From an uncultured Chloroflexia bacterium (GTDB taxonomy: Bacteria; Chloroflexota; Dehalococcoidia; SZUA-161): a stretch of DNA of 64,000 bases. The stretch spans positions 77,068 to 141,067 of the forward strand of contig CAWKAJ010000002.1 of assembly GCA_963847595.1 (NCBI GenBank). The letters run 5' to 3'. The position numbers and the translations under genes were made by a program. Below, one piece after another: positions 24,296-46,166 of the stretch (the stretch's first letter is position 1; every line of letters starts with the position of its first letter). The notes beneath the pieces are model-generated. The model ran no database searches. It was not told the DNA's origin and saw only the letters and a program-made list of their open reading frames with translations.

Positions 24296-24387
24296 CAAAG
24301 CTTTGCTTTCTGTACAATTGACACCCCTGATTATATGATATACACTTTTGTAGGCCAGTGAATTTTGCGAAACTAAAAGGAGCATGA

Positions 24388-26046: not shown

Positions 26047-26093
26047 GCTGCTGGAATAGGGATTAGAAGGCAGTCATAATAAACGGAGGGAAA

Positions 26094-26492: not shown

Positions 26493-26531
26493 GCAGCTAA
26501 AGGTAATTCACATAGTAGAGGGAAGTTTACC

Positions 26532-26945: not shown

Positions 26946-26984
26946 GGTTATTGGCTAGCGGGGTAGGAGAGGCGAAGAAAGAAT

Positions 26985-27734: not shown

Positions 27735-27744
27735 AGATGCCTCA

Positions 27745-28245: not shown

Positions 28246-28261
28246 AAGTGATGAATCGACA

Positions 28262-28834: not shown

Positions 28835-29478
28835 GAATATCTCTGCAGGAACTTGAGCACTCCTTCCAGCGTCCAGGCACCGGCAAAGGCGACCAGTATG
28901 CTCCGCGGTGTTTTTCCCAGGAAGCAAAAAAACAGGAATTTCCAGACAGGGTATCTTAGTACCCCTGCAGCGGCGCCTGCCAGGTCAAAAATAGGATTGG
29001 GGACGAAGGCAAACACAAAGATAACCAGCGAGCCCCTTCGCCTCATCCAATGTTCCATGCGCAGGTATGTCCTGCTCTTCCTGAAGACTCCCTGGCCGCT
29101 GTAACCTGCCATATAGCCGCTGAGTTCACCCAAGGCTGACCCTGCTCCTGCGGCCAACCCTACCAAATATGGATCGTAAGTAGCACCGAGGGCAAAGATT
29201 ACTGCTATACCAGGAACAGGCAATATTATGGTTGCGCTGCTGAGAAGGCTTATGAGGAAAGCACCCAGGTAGCCATAACCGGCAAGGTTCGCCAACCTGT
29301 CGCGGAAGACGAAAATAGCGGCGGTGACACCTAGGACAAGTACGAGGATTAAGATACGTAGATACAGCTTATGCGATAGGAAAGGTCGTCTTTCAGCTTT
29401 GGTTTGCTGCTCACTTCCTGATTCTATACCTTTCCCTTCGTCGCCGATGGTATCGAGTGCGGGATCCTTATCTGCCAT
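28831..29478 (-). CDS. DedA/VTT-domain family membrane protein
   Basis: Multi-TM protein. FAFVPNPIFDLAGAAAGVLRYPVWKFLFFCFLGK resembles the DedA/SNARE-associated family. Confidence 0.55.
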   Translation of the reverse strand: MADKDPALDTIGDEGKGIESGSEQQTKAERRPFLSHKLYLRILILVLVLGVTAAIFVFRDRLANLAGYGYLGAFLISLLSSATIILPVPGIAVIFALGATYDPYLVGLAAGAGSALGELSGYMAGYSGQGVFRKSRTYLRMEHWMRRRGSLVIFVFAFVPNPIFDLAGAAAGVLRYPVWKFLFFCFLGKTPRSILVAFAGAWTLEGVLKFLQRYS

Positions 29479-29613
29479 TTATCCAATATCCCTCTTACGA
29501 AGCATTATATAGCATACGGGAGTGAACGTTGGCGGGCAGATACGCAGAACCGCTCAATCTAGCTATTAAATAGGGCAATCAGCTGATACTTAACAGGTAA
29601 GAGACGGGAAGGC

Positions 29614-32040
29614 TTAGTCTCTAAGCAGGCAACTAAACGAGGCTACCCTATCGCCCGGCTCGACCTTCATCACGGTTACGCCCTGGGTGTCTCTGCCCAG
29701 AGATGGGATGTCATCAAGGGTGGTCCGTATTACTATACCTTTGGCTGATATGAGCATAAGACCCTGACGGGGATGAACAACGGATGCAGCTATGACTTTG
29801 CCTGTCTTCTCTATTACCTTGAAAGTCCGCACGCCGCTACCGCCCCGTGCTTGAAGGGGATAAGCATTCAGGGGCGTACGTTTGCCGAAGCCATTGGCGC
29901 TGATTACGAAGAGATGAGCATTGGGGTCAACAACATCCATAGCGACCACACGGTCGTCTGCAGCAACTCGGATGCCCCGCACACCGCCACTGGTTCGGGA
30001 AGCAGCCCGCAATTCGGAGACAGCGAACTTGATTGATTGACCGTTCTCTGTTACCAGGATGACCTGGTCATCCGCCCCTGCAAGCCTGGCCGCAATCAGT
30101 TCATCGCCCTGCTCCAGGTCCATGGCGATAAGCCCGCTGGAGCGTACCGAAGAAAACTCAGCGAGGCTTGTTTTCTTGACCTCGCCTCTGCTGGTGGCGA
30201 TGACCAGGAACTTGTCCTCTGAGAAGGCGACGATAGCTACAACAGCAGTGACTCGCTCCTTGGTCTCCATTGAAACTAGATTAACGATAGGCATACCTCG
30301 GGCTGTCCGGGAGCTTTCCCTGGGGATGTCATAACACTTTAGCTGGAATACGCGTCCCCGGTCGGTGAAGACAAGCAGGTTGTGGTGGGTGCTGGCGACA
30401 AGCAGTTGCCGAACGGTGTCTGCCTCCTTTGTCTCCATGCCTATGATCCCCCTACCCCCACGGTGCTGCTGCCGATAGACGTCTGTGGCTACTCTCTTGA
30501 TGTATCCCCTATTGCTCAAGGTGACCACCATCGGCTGTTTGGGGATGAGGTCTTCGTCGCTAAAATCCTTGATTTCCTCATCGCTGATCTCAGTACGGCG
30601 AGCATCACCATATTTGGACTTCAGTTCCCCGACTTCGTCCTTGATCAGGAAATCTATCTTCTTGGGATTGGCTAAGAGGTCCTCAAGGTATGCTATGGTT
30701 TTCAGAACCTCCGTGTATTCATCGGTAATTTTCTTGCGTTCCAGGGCTGCCAGACGACGCAGCTGCATCTCAAGGATAGCCTGCGCCTGAATCTGGGAGA
30801 GTTTAAAGTTCTTCATCAGGTTTTCGCGCGCTGACTCTACGGTCTGGGAACGGCGTATGGTAGCGATAACCGCATCCAGGTTGTCAAGAGCGATCTTGAA
30901 TCCCTCGAGGATGTGGGCCCGTTCTTTGGCTCGCTCCAGGTCGAATTTGGACCTGCGGGTAATAATTTGGCGGCGGAAGTCAACGTAGTTCAGGAGAGCG
31001 CCTTTGAGGGTGATCACTTTGGGCTGGCCATCTACCAGGGCCAGCATATTGGCGAAGAAGGAGGACTGCATCGCAGTGTGCTTATACAGGTTGTTGAGAA
31101 TCTGCTGCGCCTGCCCCTCTCGCCTTAGTTCGATTACAATGCGCATTCCCTCTCTATCTGACTCGTCGCGTACCTCAGAGATTCCATCGATCCTTTTGTT
31201 TTTGGCGAGCTCAGCGATTTTCTCCACCAGCGTCGCTTTATTGGTCTGATAAGGCAGCTCGGTAATCACTATCTGGTACCTGCCCCCTTTGGCAGCTTCC
31301 TCGATGTGCGCTTTGGCCCTGACCACCATCCTGCCGTGGCCGGTAGTATAGGCGCTACTTATCCCTTCTCTCCCCTCCAAAATGCCGCCTGTGGGGAAGT
31401 CGGGGCCCGGAATTAGCTTTATGAGGTCATCGATGGTGGCCTCGGGATTATCTATCAGGTATGAGATGCCATCGCAGAGCTCGCTGAGGTTATGCGGTGG
31501 GATATTGGTGGCCATGCCTACAGCTATGCCGGCAGCGCCGTTGAGGAGCAGATTGGGCAGCCTCGCCGGGAGAACCATGGGCTCTTTGAGACTACCATCG
31601 AAGTTCGGGGTGAAGTCGACGGTGTCTTTCTCGATATCGGCCAGGATCTCGCCAGCGATGCGGGAGAGTCGGGCCTCAGTATATCTCATCGCCGCCGGTG
31701 GGTCATTGTCTATGCTGCCAAAATTGCCCTGTCCATCTACCAGCCTGTACCTCATGGAGAAATCTTGAGCCATACGCACCATGGCATCATAGACTGCGGT
31801 ATCCCCGTGCGGGTGGTATTTGCCCAGAACTTCGCCGACGATACGTGCGCTCTTCTTATAGGGACTGTTATAGTGCAGTCCCATGTCGTTGAGGGCATAA
31901 AGTATTCTGCGTTGGACAGGCTTTAAGCCATCACGGACATCAGGCAGGGCTCGAGAGACAATGACGCTCATGGCGTAGTCGAGATAAGAGTTTCTCATCT
32001 CGTCTTCGATCTTGACTGGCCTGACTGTCCCGATCTCCAT
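29614..32040 (-). CDS. gyrA: DNA gyrase subunit A
   Basis: The N-terminal [28 protein letters not shown]...[19 protein letters not shown] contains the catalytic region and the QRDR. The C-terminus has beta-pinwheel repeats. Confidence 0.95.
31815..31912. repeat. Direct repeat DR-L (gyrA codons 43-76), partner at 44502..44600
   Basis: The two copies are ~92% identical over 98 bp. There are 7 substitutions and a 1-nt indel. Homology stops abruptly on both sides. Confidence 0.8.
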
Positions 32041-32864
32041 GACTTAGTCCTCCCAGGAACTGGCGCCTTTTTTAGAATTTCACACGAATTCAGCGCACAA
32101 TGGCAACAGTGTATCACGTTCAGCGGAGTTCGTCAAAGGGTGGGAAAGGAGGGCCCAACGCCGTCGCCGGGGATGAGGATGATGGTATGGGGGGTGTCCT
32201 TTGGGGTGTTATACTCAAGCATGAAATGGGAGCCTTCCATTTCAATATGTTAAGCAATTCTTGTTTGGAGATATTATTCCAGAGGCTTATTTTGTTGAGG
32301 ATATCGGAGAGGGTTCCTTTTGCTATTACTTTGTGTCCGAGGACAGTAATCCAACGAATTGAGAAGGCTAACGATATTATCGTCGCTGACTTGAGGTAGC
32401 TTTGGCATTCGATAGTTTTACCTCGGAGACGGTAAGGATAGTAATGGTCTCTGTAGTATCACCAAAATGGAGGCTCACAGCCTGTTTAATGTTCTCCAGG
32501 AGTTTGTCCAGAGTGCTGCCTTGAGTGAATATGTCTTCTCCTATCCCTCGGGCACACCAGGCTTAGCCATGGGAATATATTGCTATCTGCATGAGCATAT
32601 TGAAACTCCGCTAAACCTCAAGCAACATTATGTCAACTAGCATTTCCCATATCAACTCAAGACGATAGTATGACCGGGCTCCACCACCGTCTGCGCAAAT
32701 GATAAGCCCCCGTTTCGCTCGTGGTCAAGCCCATATCTGCGGTCAAGGCATATCCGCCGGGAACTCGTGTCAAGTATGAGTATGTTTAAGCGGGTCCCAG
32801 TAAGATCGCTGAAGGGAGCCAGGTGCACGCACATGCCTACCCCCGCGGAAACCCTTCATAGCCT

Positions 32865-32995
32865 TCATAGCCGTCACTGCCCACCAGTCACTGTCGATTG
32901 GCCCCGTGAGTCTTTGAGCGTTTCGGGCCGGGCTGTGGCCCGGAACCCGTCACAGCCGCCGGCTCAGCTCCGTCGGCATAGCTACCCGCGTGAAA
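32865..32995. repeat. Decayed copy of the 3' end and downstream region of the primase-P-loop gene (partner 36035..36165)
   Basis: Direct repeat of ~130 bp at ~75-80% identity. The stop codon of the intact copy (TAA at 36057) is replaced by CAA here. Confidence 0.6.
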
Positions 32996-33084
32996 ACCCT
33001 TTATAGCCTTCATTGCCGTCACCGGGGTAGGATGGATTCAATGTACACCAAAGTCAGGTAGAATAAAGAGACGGAGGTGTCGGC

Positions 33085-33333
33085 ATGCAAGTGATTGCGC
33101 AAGGAAGGTATACCATAGAATTCCGCCAGGAAGCGGTCAAACTGTTAACCGAGGAGAAGTTATCGTTACCAGAGGCAGCCCGCAGGTTGTCTTCGGGGCC
33201 TTCAACGATACGTTGCTGGGTAAAGGTATTTAAGGCTACCAAGCTGGGAGAAATTGGCAAGGGGCAAAGACCACTGACTGATGTTGAGATGTGTATACTT
33301 CAGAATAGGTACTTGGTCACCTGTCACGTCTAA
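33085..33333 (+). mobile_element. IS3-family transposase OrfA (HTH) remnant, no OrfB
   Basis: YTIEFRQEAVKLLTEEKLSLPEAARRLSSGPSTIRCWVKVFK...LTDVEMCILQ matches IS3 OrfA (FKxEAV, WVK, leucine-zipper start). It is truncated, with a minus-strand gene immediately after. A GGAGGTG RBS is present. Confidence 0.5.
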
Positions 33334-33902
33334 CTAACGGAATTTCCTAGTGAATCGCGAATAGATTCGCGTTTCGCCATCTGGTTTGCACTGTCGATAT
33401 TCTCCTTTTCAGGTATAACAACTTGAATACCCAGCGATGCAAGTAAGCGGGTTAGGAAAAGCGACGTAACTTCTTCCCAAGTTCTCCTCTCTCCGGAGAA
33501 AGCCAGCACAACAGGGTTGTCCTGTTCACCTATTGCTACGTCCTTCAGAAAAGATTCGAACTTGTTTCTGTCCCTCTGCGACAGGCTATAAGTCAGTGTA
33601 TCAATTACCTTGTCCAGAGTTACAAAGTGAGGCAAAATTTGTTTACGCCCCATTGCTCGGGTAAGCACAAGCCGAGCGAAAGTGGAAGGGCCTAACCCCT
33701 CCTCCTTGGCAATGTCACGCAGGCGTGTCAACTCCTCACCAGTTAGACGGACAGCCAAGAACGACGAACGCTTTTGTCTGGCTTGAGCTTTGTTAATCCT
33801 CGACTTGTATCCTTCAGCCAGCGGCCCACGTCCCTCCCAATACTTTCTTTCCTCCTCCAGTGATTGAAACTCTGGAACCCCAGTATCCTTCATTCTTTTC
33901 AT
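33330..33902 (-). CDS. BrnA-like/ribbon-helix-helix antitoxin domain protein with ~100-aa C-terminal extension
   Basis: N-terminal VPEFQSLEEERKYWEGRG...KRSSFLAVRLTGEELTRLRDIAKEEGLGPSTFARLVL resembles BrnA/RHH antitoxins. A brnT-like pseudogene lies directly upstream. Confidence 0.45.
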   Translation of the reverse strand: MKRMKDTGVPEFQSLEEERKYWEGRGPLAEGYKSRINKAQARQKRSSFLAVRLTGEELTRLRDIAKEEGLGPSTFARLVLTRAMGRKQILPHFVTLDKVIDTLTYSLSQRDRNKFESFLKDVAIGEQDNPVVLAFSGERRTWEEVTSLFLTRLLASLGIQVVIPEKENIDSANQMAKRESIRDSLGNSVS

Positions 33903-33916
33903 AGTCCCACTCTTCC

Positions 33917-34192
33917 TTATCCTTTTCTTGCTTTGTTTCTGTATCTACGCTCGTAGTGTTCGCTCATTTCGAAAGCGGTTACTGGTCTGAACAACCCTTT
34001 ACCAACTTGCTCAACCACCACGTTGAGATATTTGCCGGCCGCAGTTTGTCCGCTCAGGACATATGTTAGGTTACTTTCTCTCCTGCTTAGATGTGCCCCA
34101 AAGCAGATGTCTTCAACCTCCTCAGGGTTTACGTCGTGGCGCGCGATATGCTCGATATTTTCGTCATCCTATTCAAGCTCACTAATTCTCAA
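33917..34192 (-). pseudogene. brnT-like toxin gene inactivated by in-frame TAG at the conserved Trp
   Basis: The minus-strand translation LRISELE*DDENIEHIARHDVNPEEVEDI...FRPVTAFEMSEHYERRYRN aligns to the BrnT consensus MKFEWDENKNRSNIAKHGVSFEEA...RIISARKATKKER. The TAG (complement of 34169-34171) occupies the position of the EWD Trp. Confidence 0.5.
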
Positions 34193-34579
34193 TCACTTCT
34201 TCCCTTTGTTTAGGGTGTCACAATGTGACACAATTGTCAAGACATGTATGTGCTTCATACTGTCCTTTCACATAGGCAAATCTCTATGCCTCAAGCGCAT
34301 ACAACCCTGAGATTCTGGCTATGGGGCTTATGATAAGCGCGGCTTATAGTGCTTCAGCCTTTTCTGATGGCTTGTCACCGAAGTTCTTGATTATGATACA
34401 GCATAATCAGGATGGGATTTTTTGTAGGAAGACTCATTGAAAGCTGAGGGTACATATGGATGAAATGTGACTTGGAGCAGCATCAGCAAAGTAATTTGTG
34501 TTATGGGCGCTTACACAGACTTGACAAATACCTGCAGATGGAGTATCTTCAATGTAGATACCATGAATGGAGGTTTGAA

Positions 34580-34822
34580 ATGAGAACCCGTGTCCAGAAA
34601 TGGGGCAACAGCCTTGCCTTGCGTATCCCGAAATCTTTCGCAACCGAAGTAGGACTCCAGAGAGAAACGTCTGTTGAGGTATCGCTGGCAGATGGGAAAC
34701 TCGTTATCACACCCGTAACTGAACCGAAGCTGAACCTTGAACAACTTCTGGCAAAGGTCACGAAAGAAAACTTGCATCACGAAGTTGATACGGGCCCCTT
34801 CACAGGTAATGAAACATGGTAA
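34580..34822 (+). CDS. mazE: MazE/AbrB-type antitoxin
   Basis: VQKWGNSLALRIPKSFATEVGL...DGKLVITP is the SpoVT/AbrB swapped-hairpin signature. A GGAGG RBS is present. The stop overlaps the mazF start (ATGGTAA). Confidence 0.8.
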   Translation: MRTRVQKWGNSLALRIPKSFATEVGLQRETSVEVSLADGKLVITPVTEPKLNLEQLLAKVTKENLHHEVDTGPFTGNETW

Positions 34823-35163
34823 GCTCGCGAACTTATGTTCCACAATGTGGGGATGTGGTACGGATTACCTTGAATCCGCAAGCAGGTCATGAACAAGCAG
34901 GACGTCGTCCTGCTGTGGTACTCTCACCTCAAAGCTATAACGGGAAAACTGGGCTAGCTATCCTTTGTCCCATTACCAACCAGATTAAAGGCTATCCATT
35001 CGAGGTTCTTATCCCTGCGGGGTTGTCGGTCGCGGGGGCGATCTTGTCCGACCAGGTCAAGAGCTTAGATTGGCGCGCTAGAAATGCAGAATTGGTCTGC
35101 ACCTTGCCCACCGATACTATCTCGGAGGTGCTCCAGAAGTTGGTTACGTTGTTATCGCAGTAG
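34816..35163 (+). CDS. mazF: MazF/PemK-family endoribonuclease toxin
   Basis: GDVVRITLNPQAGHEQAGRRPAVVLS...LAILCPITNQIKGYPFEV...ILSDQVKSLDWRAR is the classic MazF/PemK pattern. Confidence 0.85.
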   Translation: MVSSRTYVPQCGDVVRITLNPQAGHEQAGRRPAVVLSPQSYNGKTGLAILCPITNQIKGYPFEVLIPAGLSVAGAILSDQVKSLDWRARNAELVCTLPTDTISEVLQKLVTLLSQ

Positions 35164-36056
35164 GGAAATGCTTTTCAGAGCAATTTTCATAGCAATAAGA
35201 CCTTTTGAATTACCTTAATCGGAGTGATAGAAGAGTAAGATCACCTCGGTTAATACCTTCCTTTCATTTCACAGACTGACATCCTATCTGAACTGTTAGC
35301 TACATACAAAATGTAGACCATCGACATCTTGCTGCTGGAAGCCTATTACAGACACCACCTTCACGGAGGAGGAATGTCCTATACAATGTCGCATGCAGAA
35401 AACAGTCGCACTATGTAAGTTATACGTACAATTCTGAAGCTATCCATGAGATATTACTGTGAGGACCATACGAAGCGCAAGAGGGCACCTTTGTCACAAC
35501 CACTATATCAAACCGAGTACTTATCTGCTTCTGGCGTAGAAAAATAGTATGAACCAATGCAGGCAGTATTGCGCCAGAGCTGTTATTAATGGGCGCCTGT
35601 CAGCGGACCAACAAGATCACGGGTGAGTCATCAATTCACGAACACTGGGATGTTTGATTTATTTGTACTATGACCATATTTCCGACAAGCAGTTATTCAG
35701 TATTCTACCGCAATCTACTTCTCTACTGACTCCGTCATTATTCTAAGGCGACTCGCTCGATGAGACCCTCGAAAACGCTTCCATTCAAGGGGCTATTTTC
35801 TCCCCATAGATCCGATAAACCATGTCTCCGATGCCTCCATTTTCAGGTCCGGGGTCAAGACAGCGCACACTGCGAAACACTATTTCAGGCAGTTTCTTTT
35901 TCCTCGAGTCGCCTATTCCGCTGTCATCTCCCATAGCGCGTTGATTTCAAGCAGGACAGGGAGCAGAGCCTTGGGGCACATCGTTCCCGTTGACTTCTGG
36001 GTATTCAGGAACGGGTCGAAAACCAACTAGCCTTGGTAGCCGTCACTGCCCACCAT

Positions 36057-38798
36057 TCACTGGTGATTAGCCCTGTGAGTCTTGGAGCGTATCCGGCCAG
36101 GCTGTGTTCCGGAACCCGTCACACTGACCGGAGCGGCTTCCTCAGCAGCAGGCTCGGTCGGCGCCTCAATGCCCCACCTATCGCAGACACTCGTCAGCTG
36201 CCCGGGCTGAATATAGTACATCACGCCTGTGGCAGTCCTCTTCTTCGATCTGGGACTGTGCAACAGGCCGAGGTTTTTCAAGCTGTATCCGACACTCTGC
36301 GGCACATCCCTGGGCAAATGGCTCCCTGCCAGAACCTGCCTGAGCTGCCCTTCCATCTCCTTTGCGGCAATCCATTTAGCCTCAGCTCCATCTTTTCCCA
36401 CCAGGGATACCAATACTTCCATCAAGGCCAGGTCGAATTCCTCGAGCCCGCTGTCCGAGCCCTCAGCTGAGGCCTCGCGGGCATACTCCACCAGCCGATC
36501 CAACACGCCATCGGCCCCACGCTCGTCCAGGAGCTTGGCCACGGAGAACAGGGGCAGCCACAATTCGTGGTCCCGGTTCAGGAGTATCCTGAGGCTGGCT
36601 TCGTCGGCGTAGAGCTGCCTCACCTCAGGGAAGTGGCCCAGCGCGAAGCAATACAGCTCGTGTCTCATGCCGGCCCAGTCCTCGCCGTTATCGGAAAGCT
36701 CCACCCTGCCGATTTCGGGGTTCTCGGTCCTCAACATGTTTATAGATATGCACCGGCTGCCCAGGATGTCCTCTATGGGGTCTATGCTGGCGATCATCTT
36801 GGGGCTGTACACGTCGTACTGTATCGCCATCAAACCTTTATCCGGGACGGCCTCCGCCCTGATGGCGGCGGCCCCCTTCTTGCACCCCGCCCTGAGTAGG
36901 CCCAGGAGCTCGCGGCTGTCCCGGTCCCTGGCCCCTCTCAGATTCTCCGCCTCGTCCAGGCCCACGCAACACCGGGAGGACTGCACCAACCTGAAGGTGG
37001 CGCTGGGGGTGATGCCGGAGGCCAGCACCATGTTGAATGCCAGCTTGGAGGCGAGCCTCATGGTCTGGGTCTTGCCGGTGCCCTTAAACCCGTAGAGGTG
37101 CAGATAGGGGTAGCTGGTGAACAGCGGGAACAGATAGCTCGCCATGCACCATATGGCCAGGATCTCTGCCTCCACGGGGTCCCTGAAATCTATGTGCCTT
37201 CTCACTATGCCCAGCAGCCTGGAGAAGGTTTGGCCAGGGTCCGGGTCATCTCCATCCAGGAACCTGTCTATATCGGCCTTCCTCCAGCGCTTCTCGCAGG
37301 GGGCTTTGGGTTCGCTCCGGAACAGGACGCGTTGCCCCCTTATCTCAAGCCCTCTCCCGTACGGCTCCAGCCTCTGCCTGTCGCTGGTGATCAGATAGGG
37401 CCTGGTAACTACCCTATTATCGATTTTCATATCCAAAGCCACGCTTACCACCCCTATTTGCTCCAGGTAGTCCAGCGCGGGGTGTATGGCCAGGCACGCG
37501 CCTTCATCGATATCCTCTGCACCAATGCCTGCGGCCCTTTCCTCCTCACCTCTGGCCTCCTTCAGGTGTGCTGCAAACTGCCCGCGGGTGATGCCCAGGC
37601 CCTTGACCACCTTCCTCCGGTATTGAGGCAGATCGAACTCGGCCAACGTGGCCATGAAGCGGAAGAGCCCTTCCACCTCGTCAGCCCGGCGCGCGCCGTT
37701 AAGTGCCGCGATACGCCCCAGCATGCTATCGACGAGATCGGGTGATTTGTTCAACAGGCTCCTAAACTGGTCCTTGGAACAGCGTAGAGGTCCCTTGGCG
37801 GATTCATAGAGGTCTCTCCCGTGCGTGGCCGCTGGGACCAGGTAAGGCATGATGCCTATACCTTTGGTGATGCGCTTGCCCAGGGCAAGCGCATCACCAA
37901 AGGCGTCAGGGATAAAACAAATATAAATTGGGTCGCGGCCCGCCAGAAGCGGCAGCCACTGCTCCGGCAGCGTGCCCCGCGGCACAAACAGGCAATTCAC
38001 TGACCAATCCACCAGAGCCATAAGGTCCCCGAAGCTCAGCACGATGACTAGCTCCCCCTTGTCGCCCTCGGCCACCGATCGTAAGGGCAAACCTTTCACA
38101 AGTTCATTTGGGGGCAGGTCCAGGTATGTGGGCCAGGTAGACTTTTCCAGGGCTTTCCCTGTCATAAATACCACCCGACCCCGGGAGTGGACCGGAATGG
38201 TGACCCTGTTTTGAAAGAAGTCGCTGCCGTCCTCTCTGAGCACACCGGCCTTTTTGGCCAACTCGATATCGAAGCCCTTCCCGGCCAGATACTGGGCCAG
38301 GTTGGCTCCCTGAGCCCATCCTAGCTTTAGTTTCATCACTGAAGCTTCATCCTGAGCAACCTTTTCCACCACTTCCTCCAGGCGAGCCCTATCTTGCACC
38401 AGGGCCTTGTGATAGAGATCGACTGTGGCCTCCAGGACATCCCCCATGGCTCTGAGTTCCAGCTCTGATGGTGCATCCGGTTGGGGCAGCGCGGGCTTCA
38501 GTATCCCTGCCCTGTCGGCAAGCATGTTCCTGGCTTGTATGAAATCCACCCCCTTCAATTCCCGAACCAGGTCGAATACATCTCCCCACCTGGCGCACCC
38601 GGAACAGCGGTAGGATTGGTCATCGACGTACACCGCGAAGCCTGCATGGCCGCCCTGGGGCAAAGGACAGGGGCACTTGAGCTCCGACGGAACAGTTTCA
38701 TCGAATCCTGGGAAGTCGGGAACGAACTCAGGCAGCACGTCCTGGATGGGATTGGCTGCCCTCACCTCCTCTGTGAACCCTGTTGTGATTCCTTTCAT
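36057..38798 (-). CDS. Primase-like replication protein: N-terminal zf-CHC2 zinc finger, Toprim-like domain, and a C-terminal P-loop NTPase (SF3-helicase/DUF3631-like) domain
   Basis: CPCPLPQGGHAGFAVYVDDQSYRCSGCARWGDVFDLV matches the DnaG zf-CHC2 pattern (CPFH...F.V....YHCFGCG..G). The C-terminal region has a Walker A motif (LYGFKGTGKTQTM) and a Walker B motif (VGLDEAENL). The gene has high GC. Confidence 0.65.
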   Translation of the reverse strand: MKGITTGFTEEVRAANPIQDVLPEFVPDFPGFDETVPSELKCPCPLPQGGHAGFAVYVDDQSYRCSGCARWGDVFDLVRELKGVDFIQARNMLADRAGILKPALPQPDAPSELELRAMGDVLEATVDLYHKALVQDRARLEEVVEKVAQDEASVMKLKLGWAQGANLAQYLAGKGFDIELAKKAGVLREDGSDFFQNRVTIPVHSRGRVVFMTGKALEKSTWPTYLDLPPNELVKGLPLRSVAEGDKGELVIVLSFGDLMALVDWSVNCLFVPRGTLPEQWLPLLAGRDPIYICFIPDAFGDALALGKRITKGIGIMPYLVPAATHGRDLYESAKGPLRCSKDQFRSLLNKSPDLVDSMLGRIAALNGARRADEVEGLFRFMATLAEFDLPQYRRKVVKGLGITRGQFAAHLKEARGEEERAAGIGAEDIDEGACLAIHPALDYLEQIGVVSVALDMKIDNRVVTRPYLITSDRQRLEPYGRGLEIRGQRVLFRSEPKAPCEKRWRKADIDRFLDGDDPDPGQTFSRLLGIVRRHIDFRDPVEAEILAIWCMASYLFPLFTSYPYLHLYGFKGTGKTQTMRLASKLAFNMVLASGITPSATFRLVQSSRCCVGLDEAENLRGARDRDSRELLGLLRAGCKKGAAAIRAEAVPDKGLMAIQYDVYSPKMIASIDPIEDILGSRCISINMLRTENPEIGRVELSDNGEDWAGMRHELYCFALGHFPEVRQLYADEASLRILLNRDHELWLPLFSVAKLLDERGADGVLDRLVEYAREASAEGSDSGLEEFDLALMEVLVSLVGKDGAEAKWIAAKEMEGQLRQVLAGSHLPRDVPQSVGYSLKNLGLLHSPRSKKRTATGVMYYIQPGQLTSVCDRWGIEAPTEPAAEEAAPVSVTGSGTQPGRIRSKTHRANHQ

Positions 38799-40057
38799 GT
38801 TCCCCTCCCTTGTCTTAAGGCTTGGCTATGCCCTGGCTTCAGGTTCAGCCATTCAGAGTAAGGTGCGCGCCTAAGAGTCCTATGGGACCAGGTTGCTCCA
38901 AAGCAGGGCAGAACCCGGAACTACCGACCCCGTCTCCCGCTGCCTTGTGCTATGGGCCGGCGTTTTCTCTAGCTTCCCTCTGCGCAGGTATGGTGTTGAC
39001 CACGGCCCAACGAGCAGCAAGCCCACGACAGGGGTTCTTGAGTTAGTCCAGTGCCCGTTTGGAAGGCCCCTAGCCCCAAGCGTCTCCCCCGGTTCAGCGC
39101 AGCTAGTAACAGGGCGGGCGATTCTCCGGAGACTACATTATACGACCTTCGCCCCAGTTTTCAAGAGCGGTTTCGCTGCTACTTTTGACCGGTCGAAGCC
39201 AGGCCACACGTGGAACAAAGGGGAAATCTCCCCGGCCACCCTGGCCAACACAGGGTGCCCCGCAAAGGAGGAGCCAATTCAACACATTTCCTGCCTGCCG
39301 GCATTATATTATGCCAAGTTAGCTCTGCTTTTGCTGGGGATTTCACTGGCACTTTGGTACTCCCTCAAGGGGGCTGACTATTTCGGACCTTGGGGAGAGC
39401 GCGGGGTTTGAGAAAGCGGGGTGCCCCTGGAGGAGGAGCCCAGGGCAGTACGCGAGGGCTTGCGGAGGGGAGAAACCTGGCACTGTGGCTGTTCTTGCCG
39501 CTCGGTGGCGCAGACGGTAGCTATTATGGCTGGGGGGAGACGTGGGCGGGTAGCCGGGTTTCTACGGCTTATCAGTCCAGAAGCACTCAGCCCATGGAGA
39601 GGTATGGCTCTCCTTCCTGATCATGCCGGCTTTGACCGGGGCTCCCTGGTCTCGCTGTTTCTCCCTCGCTCCGCATGATGAGCAGACACTCCCTAATTGG
39701 AGCGATGCGTTAATGTTTGGCACACGTATCATGGCCAAAGTTGGCCAGAGAGTCCTTAGCCTTCTGGCCAGGCTCGCGGATAAGGAGCCTATGGAACACG
39801 AGTCCCTCGAAGGGTCGGCAGAGGAAGCGGTTCCGCTCGGCGTTCCCGCAACAAATCATACTCCGCCGGGGCAGTCAAGCCGAGACAAGAGGGGGGAATG
39901 TGCTCCTAACGTGTTGAGTCTTGGAGCCCCATCATCGTCAAGTTTAAGAAAGTGGTAAGCGAATAGCAGAGGCAAAGGGCAGGAGGGGCGGAGCGTAATG
40001 CCAATGCGGTACCGCAGAACGTCGGCCCCCTAGGTTCACTGGGAGCAGCGTCGCTAG

Positions 40058-40306
40058 CTATTCTGAGTAGAAGTGCGGTTCGAGTTCGGTCTCAGGGATG
40101 TACCGCGCGGCTTGGCGCATAATAGCCCGTATTGTGCCGGGATCGAGCTCGGTGTGCAGAGGAATAGTCAGCGTCTGCTTTTCTCCGCTTTGGCCTATCC
40201 TGCGCAGTTTGACGTGGCTGCCCCTCTGGGAGTGGACATGAAAGCCAAACGCGGCCATGATGGTCAGCACCTGGCCTCCCGAGAGGCGCTTCAGCCTAGG
40301 GGACAA
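40058..40306 (-). CDS. hicA: HicA-family mRNA interferase toxin
   Basis: LSGGQVLTIMAAFGFHVHSQRGSHVKLRR...TLTIPLHTELDPGTIRAIMRQA is a YcfA/HicA fold pattern. Confidence 0.7.
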   Translation of the reverse strand: MSPRLKRLSGGQVLTIMAAFGFHVHSQRGSHVKLRRIGQSGEKQTLTIPLHTELDPGTIRAIMRQAARYIPETELEPHFYSE

Positions 40307-40523
40307 CCACAGGCTCCAACTCGAATGTCACCAAGAGCGATGGGTTAGGGGCGAGGTCGAAGTCAGCCAGGTCTTCGCCTTCAAGGTGCAGTGCCACCGC
40401 CTCCTGGAGATTTGAGATGGTTTCATCTAGGGTCTCGCCTTGGGTGACAACTGGTATCTCCAAGCACTCCGCAACATAATACTTCTCACCCTTATGCACA
40501 AATGCCTTGATCGAATGGCGCAC
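40296..40523 (-). CDS. hicB: HicB-family antitoxin (UPF0150)
   Basis: KGEKYYVAECLEIPVVTQGETLDETISNLQEAVALHLE matches HicB N-terminal domain consensus. It overlaps hicA by 11 nt. Confidence 0.65.
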   Translation of the reverse strand: MRHSIKAFVHKGEKYYVAECLEIPVVTQGETLDETISNLQEAVALHLEGEDLADFDLAPNPSLLVTFELEPVVVP

Positions 40524-40751
40524 AACTACCCCCTCTATTCGATACGGGTGTCGACTACTGCATACACCCTGTTGCTAAACATTTTAAACCCAGCTCATTG
40601 TTTCTGCAACTTGCTGTACCTTCTGGCACTGTGCAGATCGGGACAGGGTTCCTCTAAGCCTAATGTGTGGTCCCTGCCCTTTCTATAGGCGTCTCAGCAG
40701 AGGCAATTACCGAAAACCGCCAGAAAGCCCGCATGTCCGTGTCGGTGATGA

Positions 40752-43277
40752 ATGAGCCTTGAGCTCCCTTCTGAAATAGTTGACATGTGTGTTATTTTGT
40801 GCGAGATTATCGACAGGGAATGTGAACATTCCAGGAATGAGGTCTATCGAATAAACTGCCGCCTCGTTCAGGGACTGAAGGGGGCAGATTTCCTACTTGC
40901 TCTGGATGCGCTTGCCTGGAGGGCGGGGATGCAGAAGCCGAAGCTAGGTGAGGGCGATATGAAGTGGGAGCTCAAACAGAGAGCCATTGAGGATGTCCTG
41001 GGCGCTACCGCCGATATCTACCACCGGGCCCTTGTGCAAGACAGGGCCTTCCTCCAACATCTACAAGCGAAGATGGCCTGGTCTGAAGAAACTATAAAGG
41101 AAGCCAAGCTAGGGCTGGCGCGGGGAACGGACCTGGCGGGGCATCTGGCTGCCCAGGGGTTCGATTTGAAGCTGGCAAAAGGGGCCGGGGTGGTGAAGCG
41201 GGACGGCAGGGCCTTCTTTGAGGGCAGGCTCGTAATACCCTATTTGGCTCAAGGCAGGGTGGTGTATATGTCAGGGTGGGCCCTGGAGGGTTCAAGCCTG
41301 CCCGAATGCCTGGGTCTCCCCGTGAGCAGATTGGTGCAGAGGGTGGCCTTTAATGCTGATGCCCTGCACGAGCAGGGGAAGCTGATCATCGTGGAGGGCT
41401 GGGCCAGCGCATTGACCCTGAAGCAGTGGGGCTACGATGTCGTCTCCCTGGGGGGGACGGCCTTATCCGGGGAGGAGCTCCGGCTCTTGAAAGGCCACGA
41501 CAGGATTTACCTTTGCTTCGACACTGGCCCCTTCGACAGGGCTGTGGCGGCGGCGAAGGGGATCGCAAGGCAAATGGGCATCGTGGCTCACCTGGTCGAG
41601 TTGCCGCAGGGCGCTAAAGACCCCCATGAATTTGCCCTCCAGGGCCATACCGGGGCTGAGTATGAGGAGCTATTGGAACGGGCGAGGTCCCTGCTTGACG
41701 TGATGCTGGAACGTGCTGCGGCCACCATAGGTGTGGAGCGAGGCAGCTACGAGAGAGATCTCTTCACCTGCATGCGCGGGCTAGGCGACCCCGATATCGA
41801 GCCCTATCGGCAGAAGGCGCTCCGGAGCCTGGGTATAAATGATCACGATTTCACGGTGTACCTTGTGGCGGCCAGGACTGGGGAAAGGATACCGCTGGAG
41901 GTCGCTACGCGGAACTTTGCCCCCGGCTCGTTCTTGGAGCTACACCCTGCCCTGGATTACTCGGCCCAGGTGGGGGTGCTCGCCGCAGCTTGGGATGAGG
42001 TCATTGGCAACAGGGCTGTTACCAGGCTCTATCTGATCACCAGCAACAGGGAGAAGCTGGAGTGGGACGGGCGCCCGCTCCAGCTCTATGGCAAACGCGT
42101 GATACTCCGGAGCGAGCCCAGGGCTCCCTATGAGAAGCGCTGGAGGGAGGCAGATATCGAGAGGTTCCTGGCGGGAGATGACCCGGATCCTGGCCAAACC
42201 TTCAATCGGTTGCTGGAAGCAGTGCAGCGTCACATAGGCTTCAAGGAGGCGACAAAGGCGGAGCTCCTGTCCATATGGTGCATGGGCAGCTATCTGTTCC
42301 CCCTTTTCGGCGCATATCCCTACTTGCATCTCTACGGCCCCCAGGGCTGGGCCAGGACGCAGACCATGGCGCTGGCGACCAGGGTGGCCTGCAACATGGT
42401 GCCCTCATCTGCCGTCGCACCCCGCAACATGTTCAGGTTGGTGCAGTACTCCCGCTGTGGCCTGGCTCTGGATGAGGTAGAGAACCTGAGGGGATCCCCA
42501 CACCAGGGTGCCCAGGACCTGCTCAGGTTCCTCAGGGCTGGATACAAGGAAGACGGGCGAGCCGAGGTATGGGAAGACGAGCCTGGCCAGGGATCACACC
42601 TCAGACTGCGCGAGGCCTATAGTCCCAAGATCGTTGCCAGCACAGGTGACATAGAGGATATCTTGGCTGGCAGGTGCATCCCCCTAGATATGCGGAGCAG
42701 CGAAGGTGCCGGCAGCAGCGGGCTCGAGCTTTCGGACGATGCCGAGGACTGGCCCGGCATCAGGCACGAACTCTACTGCTTTGCCCTGGGCCACTTCCAG
42801 GAGGTGAGGCGGCTATACCTCGATGACGCTGCCATCAATATTTCCCTGGAGAGGGACAATGAACTGTGGCTGCCCCTGCTCGCCGTGGCCAAATTCCTGG
42901 AGGAGCGCGGGGCCGACGGCGTGTGGGATAGAATGATGAGGTACGCCGTCGACGCGTGCGGCTCTGCCTCAGAGGGACTGACCCGGGAATTCGACGTTGC
43001 CCTGATCAGGGCACTGGAGTCCAAGCTGGGGAGGTCTCAAGTCGAAGCTGAATGGGTCTATGCCTCCAGCCTTGAATTGAAGGTTCGCGCCGCTACGGGG
43101 GGACGGTATTCCCGGCAGCAGGTGGCGCACCGGGTGGGAGCCAGGCTGAGGGAGCTGGGGTTCTTAAGCGAGCCCGGATCGAAGGAGTCGACACAAAGGA
43201 GTGTGAGGTACCTTATTCATCCCCAGGATGTGAGGGATGCCCGCGGTAGGTATGGACTCAAGTCGGTGCGGTTTTAG
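40752..43277 (+). CDS. Paralog of the primase-P-loop protein, with degenerate Walker A and no canonical zinc finger
   Basis: The protein is colinear with the 36057..38798 product from RAGMQKPKL onward (for example GRVVYMSGWALEG vs GRVVFMTGKALEK, and PYLHLYG...TQTM). The P-loop is GPQGWARTQT instead of GFKGTGKTQT. A Walker B-like LALDEVENL is retained. Confidence 0.6.
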   Translation: MSLELPSEIVDMCVILCEIIDRECEHSRNEVYRINCRLVQGLKGADFLLALDALAWRAGMQKPKLGEGDMKWELKQRAIEDVLGATADIYHRALVQDRAFLQHLQAKMAWSEETIKEAKLGLARGTDLAGHLAAQGFDLKLAKGAGVVKRDGRAFFEGRLVIPYLAQGRVVYMSGWALEGSSLPECLGLPVSRLVQRVAFNADALHEQGKLIIVEGWASALTLKQWGYDVVSLGGTALSGEELRLLKGHDRIYLCFDTGPFDRAVAAAKGIARQMGIVAHLVELPQGAKDPHEFALQGHTGAEYEELLERARSLLDVMLERAAATIGVERGSYERDLFTCMRGLGDPDIEPYRQKALRSLGINDHDFTVYLVAARTGERIPLEVATRNFAPGSFLELHPALDYSAQVGVLAAAWDEVIGNRAVTRLYLITSNREKLEWDGRPLQLYGKRVILRSEPRAPYEKRWREADIERFLAGDDPDPGQTFNRLLEAVQRHIGFKEATKAELLSIWCMGSYLFPLFGAYPYLHLYGPQGWARTQTMALATRVACNMVPSSAVAPRNMFRLVQYSRCGLALDEVENLRGSPHQGAQDLLRFLRAGYKEDGRAEVWEDEPGQGSHLRLREAYSPKIVASTGDIEDILAGRCIPLDMRSSEGAGSSGLELSDDAEDWPGIRHELYCFALGHFQEVRRLYLDDAAINISLERDNELWLPLLAVAKFLEERGADGVWDRMMRYAVDACGSASEGLTREFDVALIRALESKLGRSQVEAEWVYASSLELKVRAATGGRYSRQQVAHRVGARLRELGFLSEPGSKESTQRSVRYLIHPQDVRDARGRYGLKSVRF

Positions 43278-43361
43278 CCTAGGGGGGCGCTCTTGGCACA
43301 CGTAGACATAAGCTGTATAACGAAGCCGTAGGAATGATAGACAAATATACGGAGCATCGAT

Positions 43362-43568
43362 ATGTCAAAGATGACCGTCGTCATTGATGACAAGTTGCTG
43401 GACGAGGCGATGCGCGTGAGCGGAGCCAAGACTAAGAAACAGGCCATCGCCACCGGGCTCGAAGAGTTAATCCGCAGAAAGTACTTAGAAGATTTGCGCC
43501 AAGAATTGGGCACATTCGAACTCGCCCTTTCTTCAGGGGATCTGGAGAAGCTGAGGCACGAGCAGTAA
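43362..43568 (+). CDS. vapB: VapB-type antitoxin
   Basis: MSKMTVVIDDKLLDEAMRVSGAKTKKQAIATGLEELIRR is the typical VapB signature. Confidence 0.75.
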   Translation: MSKMTVVIDDKLLDEAMRVSGAKTKKQAIATGLEELIRRKYLEDLRQELGTFELALSSGDLEKLRHEQ

Positions 43569-43572
43569 TCTG

Positions 43573-43976
43573 GTGCTCATCGACACCTTGGTTTGGATTC
43601 TGGCTCTCGGGAAACCTCCACTGGCGAGATAAGGGATGAGGTAGCACACCTGCTGGCGGAGAACAGGGTAGCTATTGTCCCAGTGATACGTCTCGATCTA
43701 TTAGGGGGAACGAAACCACTGGATGATTTTAACCGCCTGCAGAGCCGCCTCAATGCCCTTCACCAGATGGCTGCAGATGAAGCCATCTGGGAGACAGCGA
43801 TTCAGCTTGCCTTCAGATTACGACAGGGAGGGAAGATGATCCTTTATACTGATTTACTCATTGCCTCGGCTGCCATCGTTAACAGCTGTACGCTTCTTCA
43901 CTGTGACAGGCACTTTGATCTGATGGCTGAGCATACCCGTTTGAACATGAGAAGCCTTGTTTCTATTGTAGGGTAA
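43573..43976 (+). pseudogene. vapC: VapC PIN-domain toxin gene interrupted by a frameshift
   Basis: A GTG start gives (M)LIDTLVWILALGKPPLAR*, in frame 1 with TAA at 43630-43632. The rest of the PIN domain (EIRDEVAHLLAENRVAIVPVIRLDLLGG...DLLIASAAIVNSCTLLHCDRHFD) runs in frame 0 through 43976. Confidence 0.55.
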
Positions 43977-44501
43977 CGGACCATCACAGAGTCTTCGTAG
44001 CTACCCCCAACCGGAATGGGCTCGAAGTCATTAACGAATGCCTGGAATCATTTTAAGAGGTAACCTACCCCAATCATAAGGTTCATGATGCCAATATGCC
44101 GTGTTCGCTGACCATGAGCAACCTGCGGAGTTTCTGCCAAGCCATACCTTCAAGGAATCGCATGCTCGGTGGGGTAACCCCCACCGTTAGGTATAAATAG
44201 GTGTGATCCTATCGCCTGGATCAATGCCATAATATACACCAGCCAAGTTACGAACATTTTTTGCCACCTCCTCGGCCTGAATGAGTGTTGGCTTCTGCCA
44301 CTACAACTCATTAGACTACGGTACGAGGAGCAATACATCAGCGAGATTCTTATTTTCTATAGAGAGAGGGCCGCTAGAAATAGTGACCTGAGTCGTTGGT
44401 TTCCTTTGGCTTACGATTGCGACCTCCCCGGGGTATCCGGCAGTAATGAAGTACTGTTCAAGCATGGTGGAAGATAACGGCTTTGTTACGCTAACGTTCT
44501 T

Positions 44502-44600
44502 GGTATTTGCCCAGAACTTCGCCGACGATACGCGCGCTCTTCTTATTAGGGACTGTTGTAGTGCAGTCCCATGTCGCTTAAGGCGCAAAGTATTCTGCGT
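44502..44600. repeat. Direct repeat DR-R: displaced, degenerate copy of gyrA codons 43-76 (partner 31815..31912)
   Basis: See DR-L. The copy carries a 1-nt insertion and substitutions, so it no longer encodes the GyrA segment. No gyrA start or upstream sequence follows it. Confidence 0.8.
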
Positions 44601-44651
44601 GCATCCGAATGAGATGACGTTACAAGGGGGGCGATGCTGGCCCTTTTGTCA

Positions 44652-46166
44652 TCACCAGAAATAGGGCGTGCCCAGCGCCCTGATATTTGCGATAAGTATC
44701 ATTATCTTGGCAAGGATTTCAGCTATTATCCTCCCAACACCAGTGCCTACGAGGGCGGTGATTGTTCGGTCAGCGTATTTGGTAGACCAGGCAATGAAGG
44801 TGTCCCAATTGGCCACAAAGCCACCCGGCGGTTGGTCAGGGACATCGCCCCCCGGCGTTCGCAACACCACGAAGCACAGTCTCGCTGTTTTAAAAGACTG
44901 GCCTTCCGGATTGGGCAGTGCGATCAGTCCTGAGGTCAGGATATAGAACTGGGTATCGTTACCAGTTATCCAGGTACCTGTGAAGGTGGATGACTCTCCT
45001 GTCACCTCTTGCCTGAGGTAGAACAGTGTTCTTACCCTGCTTCCGTACAGGTCAACTGGTACTATCTCAGGGGTAGCATTGCCTACCTGGAGTGTAAGGT
45101 TCCCCAACGCATGCACTGAGAAGCTCTGGGAACCATTGCCTCTTTCAACTTGTGTAGCATAGCCGACTAGTGTAGCAGAAGCGACATCTCCGTAGCTGGT
45201 GCACCAGCCCCACCCCTGAAGGTAAAGATGCACGGCGGTAGTGAAGTCGTAGTAGGTGCTATTGCCAGGGCTGACTGTGGTGTGGCCGTTAGTATCCGTC
45301 GAACTTACCTCATAGTAATACAAAGTAGCTGGGGCAAGTCCGGTCAGATTAACGAGATGGTTGGTGGTAAGATTGCCGCTGTATAGTGTAGAGCCCAGGG
45401 CGGTGCTGTTCCCATAGTTAACTGTGCTATCACTTGGCTGGTCGGTTGTCCAGGTTATGGTGGCTGAGGTGTCGGTTATGTTCCCAGCATTTACTCCTGA
45501 TATCATAACACCTGTTGTTAAGCTATAAAAAGCATCGTTGTTGTTATCTATCGTGACGTTACCGTATGGATTTGCTGAGCTTACCTCGAAATGATACAAG
45601 GTACTGGGAGTGAGTCCAGTCAAGATTATGGAGTGGTTCAAAACAAAACTGCTGTCATAAGCTGCTGAGTCCAACAGCAAGTCGGTGCCATAACTAACTG
45701 TGCTGTTGGCGAGACGGTCAGTCGACCAGGTTATGATTGCTGAATTATAGGTTATGTTCCCTACATTGACCCCTGAGATTGTGGGAGGGTATGGGTCTGT
45801 GGTGAAATTGCCTGTATCGCTAACTGCAGAGTTCCCAACAGAGTCCGTTGAGCTTACCTCATAATAATAAAGAGTGGCCAGATCGAGTCCGGTTAAAGTT
45901 ATGGTGTGGTTTCCGACAAACTCGCTGTCAGATACAATAGTGCCTAGATCAGTTGTATTACCGTAGTTTACAGTGCTATTGGCTAGCTCGTCGGTGGTCC
46001 AGGTGATGGTAGCCGTGGTTTCAGTTATGTTCCCCGAACTAACCCCCGATATCGCCAGCGGACTGGCTGAGGCCGGGGAAGCTATTAGCCACAACAGGAG
46101 TAATGCCACTATTGTGGCTATTGCCGGTTTATGCTCGCGCAGTCGAGCTTTCCCCCAGCCTTTCAT
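44652..46166 (-). CDS. Secreted surface protein with signal peptide, three tandem FN3/PAP-N-like repeats and an extreme density of N-x-S/T sequons
   Basis: Signal peptide (LLLLWLIASPASASP). The block TITWTTD...ANSTVNYGN.T.LG...L.GL.P.TLYYYEVSS.D is repeated three times. I count about 19 N-x-S/T sites in 504 aa. Confidence 0.7.
   Translation of the reverse strand: MKGWGKARLREHKPAIATIVALLLLWLIASPASASPLAISGVSSGNITETTATITWTTDELANSTVNYGNTTDLGTIVSDSEFVGNHTITLTGLDLATLYYYEVSSTDSVGNSAVSDTGNFTTDPYPPTISGVNVGNITYNSAIITWSTDRLANSTVSYGTDLLLDSAAYDSSFVLNHSIILTGLTPSTLYHFEVSSANPYGNVTIDNNNDAFYSLTTGVMISGVNAGNITDTSATITWTTDQPSDSTVNYGNSTALGSTLYSGNLTTNHLVNLTGLAPATLYYYEVSSTDTNGHTTVSPGNSTYYDFTTAVHLYLQGWGWCTSYGDVASATLVGYATQVERGNGSQSFSVHALGNLTLQVGNATPEIVPVDLYGSRVRTLFYLRQEVTGESSTFTGTWITGNDTQFYILTSGLIALPNPEGQSFKTARLCFVVLRTPGGDVPDQPPGGFVANWDTFIAWSTKYADRTITALVGTGVGRIIAEILAKIMILIANIRALGTPYFW

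Follow-up and report, generated by a model that had tools for sequence, protein, structure and literature searches.

The 64,000-nt stretch of DNA analysed here, hereafter the window, stems from an uncultured Chloroflexia bacterium (GTDB lineage Dehalococcoidia, SZUA-161; assembly GCA_963847595.1, contig CAWKAJ010000002.1, positions 77,068 to 141,067). It carries an intact gyrA gene and, beyond a block of accessory genes upstream of it, a second, 100-nt copy of gyrA codons 43-76. With a probability of about 0.68, this repeat is what trimming has left of an older, partial duplication of gyrA and is separate in origin from the decaying plasmid-like insert next to it, the locus being a stack of three unrelated layers. 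An earlier note on the same DNA, made from the letters alone, had instead taken the two repeat copies for the junctions of a mobile element integrated in the 5' coding part of gyrA. The lineage-specific, decaying insert of ~12.5 kb described there is borne out by relatives with an empty site, but it lies upstream of the gyrA promoter and not in the gene.

Empty sites and the limits of the insertion

Scanned against species-representative genomes, the window falls in an uncultured Dehalococcoidia lineage. The insertion can be located by comparison with 11 related Dehalococcoidia loci without it (L004 and the ten metagenome loci L069-L078). In all of these empty sites, a gene for a 504-aa fn3 protein is followed by ~85-170 nt and then by the gyrA promoter. 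Locus L004 matches the window at 24298-32140 and again at 44601-45482, with only 59 nt between both matches, and in every relative the upstream homology starts at the -35 box of gyrA, CCCTTTGACGAA, which corresponds to window position 32140. The gyrA promoter and 5' untranslated region (32041..32140, minus strand; -35 hexamer TTGACG within CCCTTTGACGAA) are host DNA and end at this conservation limit; the underlying promoter alignment comprised the window, L002, L004, L005, L006, L015, L066, L070, L072, L085 and L086. As the 11 empty sites are contiguous from the promoter, the insertion is real but situated upstream of the promoter, and the proposed insertion within gyrA has to be given up. 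Positions 32141-44600 represent a true, intergenic insertion of 12.46 kb, and promoter plus gyrA codons 1-76 are ordinary contiguous host DNA. On the right-hand side, the host flank (44601..46166, minus strand) consists of a 51-nt spacer, designated 'a', and the gene of the 504-aa fn3/purple-acid-phosphatase-N repeat protein (44652-46166), and its synteny extends to L004 and L069-L078. Of the two repeat copies, the proximal one is found 228 nt inside conserved host DNA, and the distal one makes up the last 100 nt of the insert.

The gyrA gene itself (29614..32040, minus strand) is intact and encodes 808 aa with a full-length Pfam DNA_topoisoIV match and six GyrA C-terminal repeats, its nucleotide orthology amounting to 84-95% across more than 20 related loci. 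The proximal repeat copy (31814..31912, minus strand) is part of this functional gene, and the distal fragment (44501..44600, minus strand) is the sole additional gyrA piece in the 64-kb window. That codons 43-76 recur near 44.5 kb at ~92% identity with one indel had been recognized before and is reproduced by alignment, in which 92 of 100 columns are identical (E = 3e-35); the abrupt loss of homology at both repeat edges is likewise confirmed. The indel is a single A inserted in the distal copy (CCCTAATAAG vs CCCTATAAG), which generates an in-frame TAA. Together with non-synonymous changes at conserved GyrA positions (Tyr to Cys, Asn to Ser), the fragment displays the disabling lesions and the relaxed constraint of a pseudogene. 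Upstream of it, no sequence coding for GyrA codons 1-42 is present, this place being occupied by the 3' end of the 504-aa fn3-repeat gene and the spacer. An independent short-read contig (L001, Logan ERR10755942) is 100% identical over host flank and fragment and breaks inside the repeat. Two further contigs, L067 and L070, share their end position in gyrA, but were rejected as evidence for a repeat edge, as both stop exactly 127 nt past the last distinguishing single-nucleotide polymorphism, which reflects convergence of the assembly graph at k=127.

Most of the insert is accounted for by an integrated, putatively plasmid-like replicon without recombinase, termed element E (32171..44049). Its limits were derived from blastn maps and junction alignments of the window with L066-L068 (~95% nucleotide identity in gyrA) and L085 (94%). 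The left terminus, reading ...CCATACCATCATCCTCATCC on the minus strand and ending at 32171 (also given as ...CCATACCATCAYCCTCATCC), is sharply defined and does not differ between the window, L066 (7208) and L085 (9667), and the right limit corresponds to L085 position 3898. Between E and the promoter, a junction spacer of 30 nt (32141..32170) is shared neither with L066/L085 nor with the empty sites, and on the other side a 124-nt spacer (44050..44173), without a match in L085, L086 or L066, separates E from a truncated copy of ORF85, a small open reading frame (ORF). The two ends of E are hence 259 nt (left) and ~450 nt (right) away from the repeat copies. Moreover, E is placed differently in its relatives. 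In L066 and L085, it is located upstream of a segment u and an intact ORF85, which abuts the gyrA promoter, in contrast to the window with E between the truncated ORF85 and the promoter. Considering these ends and the differing positions, the repeats do not bracket a mobile unit; E forms a discrete unit whose placement is independent of theirs. Neither terminal direct or inverted repeats nor a target duplication of at least 9 nt could be detected at its ends, which means that E lacks the terminal inverted repeats and the short target-site duplication of an insertion sequence (IS) or transposon. An 8-nt CCTCATCC occurs at the left junction of E only and is already present at the junction in the unoccupied L086 site.

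In light of these limits, it is very improbable that a 12.7-kb element integrates site-specifically in gyrA codons 43-76, with the repeats as attL and attR, supplies promoter and codons 1-42, and has a recombinase that was lost or escaped recognition. The idea draws on a gyrA direct repeat flanking accessory DNA while gyrA stays intact, on the distal copy adjoining host flank 'a', and on the precedent of gene-restoring islands in housekeeping genes, for instance RME in recA of Vibrio cholerae (PMC4405046). It would, however, leave behind a displaced host promoter with codons 1-42, and these are absent. The ends of E (32171, ~44049) are off the repeats, and L066 and L085 contain E elsewhere, although the same element would be expected at the same att site in other genomes. 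Furthermore, L086 and L087 possess a gyrA duplicate from promoter to codon ~118 without E, and no recombinase is encoded in any frame. The functional 5' end of gyrA speaks the same language: bin-wise identity profiles of the window and L086 against both clades gave no breakpoint and no foreign or donor-allele tract, so that a foreign gyrA 5' end was dismissed for either locus, and with it the replacement 5' end that the element had been thought to supply. Promoter regions of occupied genomes also do not group apart from empty ones, the occupied L066 promoter being closer to the empty L070 promoter than to that of the window.

The gyrA pseudo-copy in related genomes

The key to the distal fragment is provided by L086 (90 kb) and L087, which are devoid of E and yet contain a 451-nt, frameshifted gyrA copy (from -98 to codon ~118) with 84% identity to the resident gene. 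Here, the pseudo-copy is followed by ~80 nt, segment x and ORF85, and after an IS come the genuine promoter and gyrA, with the same downstream synteny as in the window (VTT, RuvA, RuvC, YebC). Window positions 44593-44503 align to L086 9459-9548 within the pseudo-copy, and positions 44502-44178 align to L086 9753-10080 (84% over 328 nt, ~95% in the ORF85 part). The latter stretch includes segment x' (44255..44500, minus strand), which is non-coding and follows the gyrA pseudo-copy in L086/L087, as well as the ORF85 remnant (44174..44254, minus strand) with the first ~27-28 codons (63% aa identity by tblastn, ~95% nucleotide identity to L086 ORF85). Compared with L086, two parts are missing from the window, namely the copied promoter together with codons 1-42 and, beyond the other edge of the fragment, codons 77-118 plus ~80 nt. 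At this second edge, codon 76 meets x in a 2-nt CA overlap. Based on this collinearity, codons 43 and 76 are therefore deletion end points and not crossover sites, and the window fragment would be a pseudo-copy trimmed by deletions on both sides. In other words, a larger homologous pseudo-copy resides at the collinear position in relatives, as is to be expected for a duplication relic, and its presence in L086/L087 without E is at odds with an att duplication made by the element. The earlier note had itself named such a larger gyrA-like pseudogene as an outcome that would speak against its reading.

Lesions of the copies point in the same direction. The Tyr-to-Cys change (RRILC) of the window fragment recurs in the L086 pseudo-copy and in P0087, a 101-aa ORF of clade-A metagenomic origin comprising gyrA codons 1-93. 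An identical frameshifted tail unites P0087 with P0112, and the copies in L086, P0087 and P0112 are all frameshifted. At other variable sites, each pseudo-copy exhibits the gyrA states of its own lineage; the window fragment is 92-94% identical to clade-A gyrA, and the L086 copy just 84% to its own gene. Shared lesions and identities are probably best explained by one old pseudo-copy lineage with occasional gene conversion.

A functional role of the fragment, for instance as an RNA that acts on gyrA mRNA as antisense or decoy, or as a homology arm by which E would recombine with gyrA, is the least probable of all explanations considered. Its 92% identity to 100 nt of an essential mRNA and the persistence of the pseudo-copy in several lineages might be quoted in favor of such a role. 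Nevertheless, no promoter-like site was found on either strand of 43900-44800 and no Rfam match for the fragment, which carries an indel and non-synonymous changes, has limits that are deletion junctions and does not belong to E in L085, L066 or other E-family contigs.

The oldest of the three layers would accordingly be a duplication of the gyrA promoter and codons 1 to ~118 to a position ~1 kb upstream of the gene in an ancestor of the group. Segment x and ORF85 would have come to lie between this copy and the real promoter, and the copy would have decayed as a pseudogene, occasionally patched by gene conversion from resident gyrA. As a second layer, E would have entered upstream of the gyrA promoter, behind the 5' part of ORF85, thereby destroying ORF85, probably through illegitimate or microhomology-mediated recombination of the host (8-nt CCTCATCC at one junction, no target duplication). 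A 3-kb module with an IS3 remnant and MazEF presumably landed within E as the third layer. In the window lineage, one deletion may then have removed the spacer b, the copied promoter and codons 1-42, and another one codons 77-118 plus ~80 nt, leaving the 2-nt CA overlap at the junction.

Several points weigh against this interpretation. The event that created the promoter-to-codon-118 copy is an inference and could have had several mechanisms. A single substitution unites the pseudo-copies of the window, L086 and P0087, and one transition could be homoplasy, with an estimated chance of ~20% for two copies. The right end of E is fuzzy (44049 to ~44085), no origin can be assigned to the 124 nt at 44050-44173 and the 30 nt at 32141-32170, and the L066-type contigs, which break near window-equivalent position 43390, do not reach the right junction of E. 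In addition, L085 has two ORF85 copies in an arrangement that is not simply derivable. Lastly, in a gyrA tree calculated from codons 125-298, i.e. outside the duplicated part, the occupied loci (window, L066, L085; L086/L087) are scattered among empty ones (L072, L077, L078; L004, L071), and this patchy distribution requires several losses or horizontal spread. Such a pattern can result from loss by recombination between the 450-nt repeats or from transfer by homologous recombination, which are not distinguishable here.

Candidates for the origin of the old copy are Campbell-type or site-specific integration, one-sided homologous recombination (cf. PMC3240628, PMC5361080) and segmental duplication. 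According to the first, an older small circular DNA, of which x, ORF85 and a terminator are now left, carried the gyrA promoter with codons 1-118 and integrated before the Tyr120 codon, whereupon the host 5' end became the pseudo-copy. The L086 architecture of pseudo 5' end, cassette, promoter and full gene equals the expected product, the copy ends in the Met118 codon beside the most conserved GyrA motif AAMRYTE, and in the window it is the pseudo-copy which is joined to host flank 'a'; own-lineage allele states of the pseudo-copies and the patchy tree distribution would be compatible as well. Still, this origin is unlikely. The proximal, functional copy of L086 retains ~20 nt of the ancestral spacer b of empty-site L004, no functional 5' end gives a foreign-allele signal, the cassette is too small for a recombinase with none nearby except in the unrelated IS, and shared pseudo-copy lesions favor a single origin over repeated integrations. 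Rather unlikely, too, is a scenario without any mobile element at the start, in which unequal or illegitimate recombination produced a segmental (tandem) duplication through codon ~118 that was later scrambled by deletions and by insertions (IS, E, a DUF8575 block). The two ORF85 copies of L085 (1322-1580 and 10001-10258) would be expected if the duplicated unit included x-ORF85, the region is a rearrangement hot spot with differing content in L002, L005, L085 and L086, and the primase gene p913 in E likewise bears a tandem array at its 3' end. On the other hand, no second ORF85 is found within 9 kb upstream of the L086 pseudo-copy, and several extra deletions would be needed. An attempt to fit L085, L086, L066 and the window into one complete sequence of events was abandoned, as tandem duplication, Campbell integration and a permuted circle each demanded ad hoc deletions.

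The small ORF85 belongs to a family of 82-87 aa (20 clusters, 67-96% identity, almost free of indels) that is found in metagenomes only, and it lies just upstream of gyrA in all four contexts examined. Its copies are located at 7542-7799 in L066, 10001-10258 and 1322-1580 in L085 and 10001-10249 in L086, in addition to the window remnant at 44174-44254. An AlphaFold2 (AF2) model gives a confident alpha-beta-beta-alpha fold (predicted local distance difference test, pLDDT, 83), for which a fold search returned no PDB neighbour (best E = 1.2). In L086, ORF85 sits downstream of the copied gyrA promoter. Concerning the other end of that copy, homology of the L086/L087 pseudo-copy is lost within the Met118 codon (L086 9664-9690), two codons before the catalytic Tyr120 of AAMRYTE. 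This end point is suggestive, albeit noticed post hoc and possibly a coincidence; in mycobacteria, GyrA inteins are inserted in this motif, too. That truncated GyrA ORFs of different bacteria might share one end point was considered and discarded, since the fetched ends were scattered, in a biased sample with output limited to at most 147 aa. As a decidedly doubtful extension, the x-ORF85 cassette might be the stump of a new gyrA-targeting element that inserts before the codon of the catalytic Tyr, carries its own promoter and ~118 codons and spreads among Dehalococcoidia without a recognisable recombinase; alternatively, ORF85 would have come under the control of the copied gyrA promoter, which is responsive to supercoiling. 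If the old duplication were indeed the footprint of an element targeting the gyrA active site, an unusual essential-gene integration site would be added to those known.

Gene content and decay of element E

The most prominent genes of E encode two primase-P-loop paralogs, in agreement with the earlier note. Protein p913 (36057..38798, minus strand) combines a DnaG-type primase (Zn ribbon, catalytic core, Toprim) with a P-loop domain and has intact Walker A (GFKGTGKT) and Walker B (VGLDEAE) motifs, while p841 (40752..43277, plus strand) is a degenerate paralog with 46% aa identity, no longer possessing the Zn ribbon or the Walker A lysine (GPQGWART). The N-terminal 360 residues of p913 align to the Zn-ribbon, RNA-polymerase core and Toprim regions of DnaG (Aquifex DnaG 2au3, E = 4e-31), this DnaG part alone being matched in a PDB profile search. 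With a DnaG-like N-terminal region and Walker A/B motifs in the C-terminal part, p913 resembles DnaG itself as well as primase-helicase fusions of plasmids and phages. It differs from these proteins in its C-terminal 500 residues, for which no matching family was found in Pfam, NCBIfam or the PDB and which bear no DnaB-type or SF3 signature. The C-terminal half resembles a Toprim protein adjoining ParA on the 11-kb Thermus plasmid p11, and the AF2 model (pLDDT 54) is too poor to classify its fold. A scan of a viral collection with p913 yielded no match, exact-protein look-ups of the window GyrA, p913 and p841 returned no record, and the p913 family comprises ~6 full-length relatives among 5.8 billion proteins. 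A divergent primase/P-loop paralog pair recurs, being present at 36057-38798 and 40752-43277 in the window and at 115-2799 and 3525-6263 in L066. Judged by sequence resemblance, p913 and p841 look like plasmid replication proteins, and E would accordingly class as an integrated plasmid-like replicon. The suggestion that these large proteins serve in integration is not supported, as they are DnaG-type primases with a P-loop domain, akin to a protein of a small plasmid, and nothing indicates a recombinase role.

A recombinase could not be found elsewhere in the insert either. Pfam, NCBIfam and PHROG scans, with Pfam applied to ORFs of at least 50 aa and in six frames to unannotated stretches, revealed no tyrosine or serine recombinase and no DDE or other transposase catalytic domain in called ORFs or unannotated segments, the only related hit being the helix-turn-helix (HTH) domain of an IS3 OrfA. 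The missing integrase reported before is thereby corroborated. Among the relatives, the L085 version of E has a single primase paralog and HicAB, the latter being missing in the L066 version, and both are without window positions 33016-36030. E-family contigs L065 and L080-L084 are rich in toxin-antitoxin (TA) genes and do not contain a gyrA piece. No close relative and no circular one was found in the PLSDB or IMG/VR collections, and no terminal overlap indicative of circularity in the E-family contigs L065 and L066-L068.

Starting from its left end, E contains a HicB-like (DUF7387) pseudogene (32380..32598, minus strand) with an in-frame stop ('YSHG*AWCARG'; 77% identity in tblastn against a 73-aa ORF of L066, which itself gives a weak DUF7387 match). 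It is followed by ~1.3 extra units of a tandem array with a period of ~145 nt (32832..33022, minus strand), which copy the 3' end of the p913-type gene, also occur in L066 and are older than the nested module next to them. The 120-nt D2 repeats (32859-32978 and 36028-36147) had been considered as a duplication generated by insertion around this module, but belong to the pre-existing array, which is found in L066 as well. The nested module itself (33016..36030; 3 kb, 46% GC), absent from L066 and L085, contains the IS3 OrfA HTH remnant (33085-33333, plus strand), a 190-aa protein with a weak RHH/NikA-like match (33330-33902, minus strand), an unconfirmed BrnT-like frame (~33900-34200, minus strand) and the genes of MazE (34460-34822, plus strand) and MazF (34816-35163, plus strand), MazEF being 88% identical in nucleotides to that of L065. 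Further to the right follow a 172-aa ORF without family match (38893..39411, plus strand), with the stretch 39053-39424 being conserved in the E-family contigs L065 and L080 by blastn/tblastx, the HicA toxin and HicB-like antitoxin genes (40058-40306 and 40296-40523, minus strand) and VapB with a VapC/PIN toxin (43362-43568 and 43561-43976, plus strand; 77% nucleotide identity to VapBC of L080).

With respect to these accessory genes, the former description holds for the IS3 OrfA remnant and for the frameshift of vapC, which is seen near 43610-43620. Of the four TA modules counted there, the three type II modules MazE/MazF, HicA/HicB-like and VapB/VapC (frameshifted) stand with adjacent domains. 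The 'brnT' label is not confirmed by Pfam, even though the in-frame stop said to inactivate that gene is indeed present in the frame. Likewise, the insert is GC-rich in part only, with 58-61% at 36-43 kb and 46% at 33-35.5 kb as compared to 50-54% in the flanks. With its vapC frameshift, the stop in the hicB-like gene and a degenerate primase paralog, E is eroding and probably immobile, a real, integrated, decaying element without integrase that is ordinary in kind.

Known systems and the gyrA-upstream region

Elements of the SXT/R391 family integrate in the 5' end of prfC. Similarly, the RME island in Vibrio cholerae recA integrates in a housekeeping gene and restores it (PMC4405046). The present locus resembles both in having a partial second copy of an essential gene beside accessory DNA while the gene stays functional. 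SXT/R391 and RME islands, however, encode an integrase, are bounded by the duplicated or target sequence and are excised in circular form, whereas here the ends are elsewhere, no integrase is present and the duplicate also exists without the element. E resembles integrated, decaying plasmid-like islands at chromosomal hot spots in that it is lineage-specific, has an atypical GC content, carries primase/P-loop genes, several type II TA modules, pseudogenes and the nested remnant of an IS, and is missing from the empty sites of relatives. It differs from typical representatives in that integrase, relaxase, partition genes and att or terminal repeats are missing and that its replication family is tiny and often occurs as a divergent paralog pair. 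A third comparison concerns orphan gene fragments which arise by one-sided recombination, as in the case of orphan Rhs/T6SS modules (PMC5361080, PMC3240628). Here as there, a displaced piece of a resident gene is found beside acquired DNA, with little homology at the junctions (2-nt CA, 8-nt CCTCATCC) and loss of recipient DNA. The microhomologies of 2 nt and 8 nt and the loss of spacer b are compatible with homology-facilitated illegitimate recombination, although, unlike in established cases, no donor molecule or homologous-anchor junction is demonstrable and gyrA contains no donor-allele tract.

From a methodological point of view, a long direct repeat of a housekeeping gene around accessory DNA need not be an att site, and the separate histories of repeat and element were revealed only by empty-site and intermediate relatives. 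The locus additionally yields two uncharacterised families, namely the rare DnaG-primase/P-loop protein in integrase-less, TA-rich elements and the conserved 85-aa ORF85.

The gyrA-upstream region of this uncultured Dehalococcoidia group is an insertion and recombination hot spot, its content differing among L002, L005, L085 and L086. Three different ISs or remnants are found there in three genomes: an IS3 with rve (L085 1-403), a 388-aa HTH_28/rve_3 transposase (L086 10343-11509) and the IS3 OrfA remnant of the window (33085-33333). L005 is 95-100% identical to L086 over gyrA, but has a different 5' untranslated region before gyrA at 1828 (71% in the first bin). A scaffold gap in L005 (N run, ~1420-1560) is located just upstream of its promoter, where a collapsed repeat of gyrA pseudo-copy and ORF85 could hide.

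Two minor observations relate to the host side of the locus. The 59-nt spacer of L004 (2962-3020) contains CCTTTGAC...CTGATAC, resembling the -35/-10 region of gyrA 50 nt downstream, which is not the case in L072; this match may go back to a promoter copy since lost, or be due to chance. The 504-aa gene comprises three 64-nt repeat cores spaced 273-276 nt apart (window 45440-46052), corresponding to domains of the fn3/purple-acid-phosphatase-N type. As its product is only 70-85% identical among relatives with 90-95% nucleotide identity in gyrA, it is a fast-evolving, surface-type protein.

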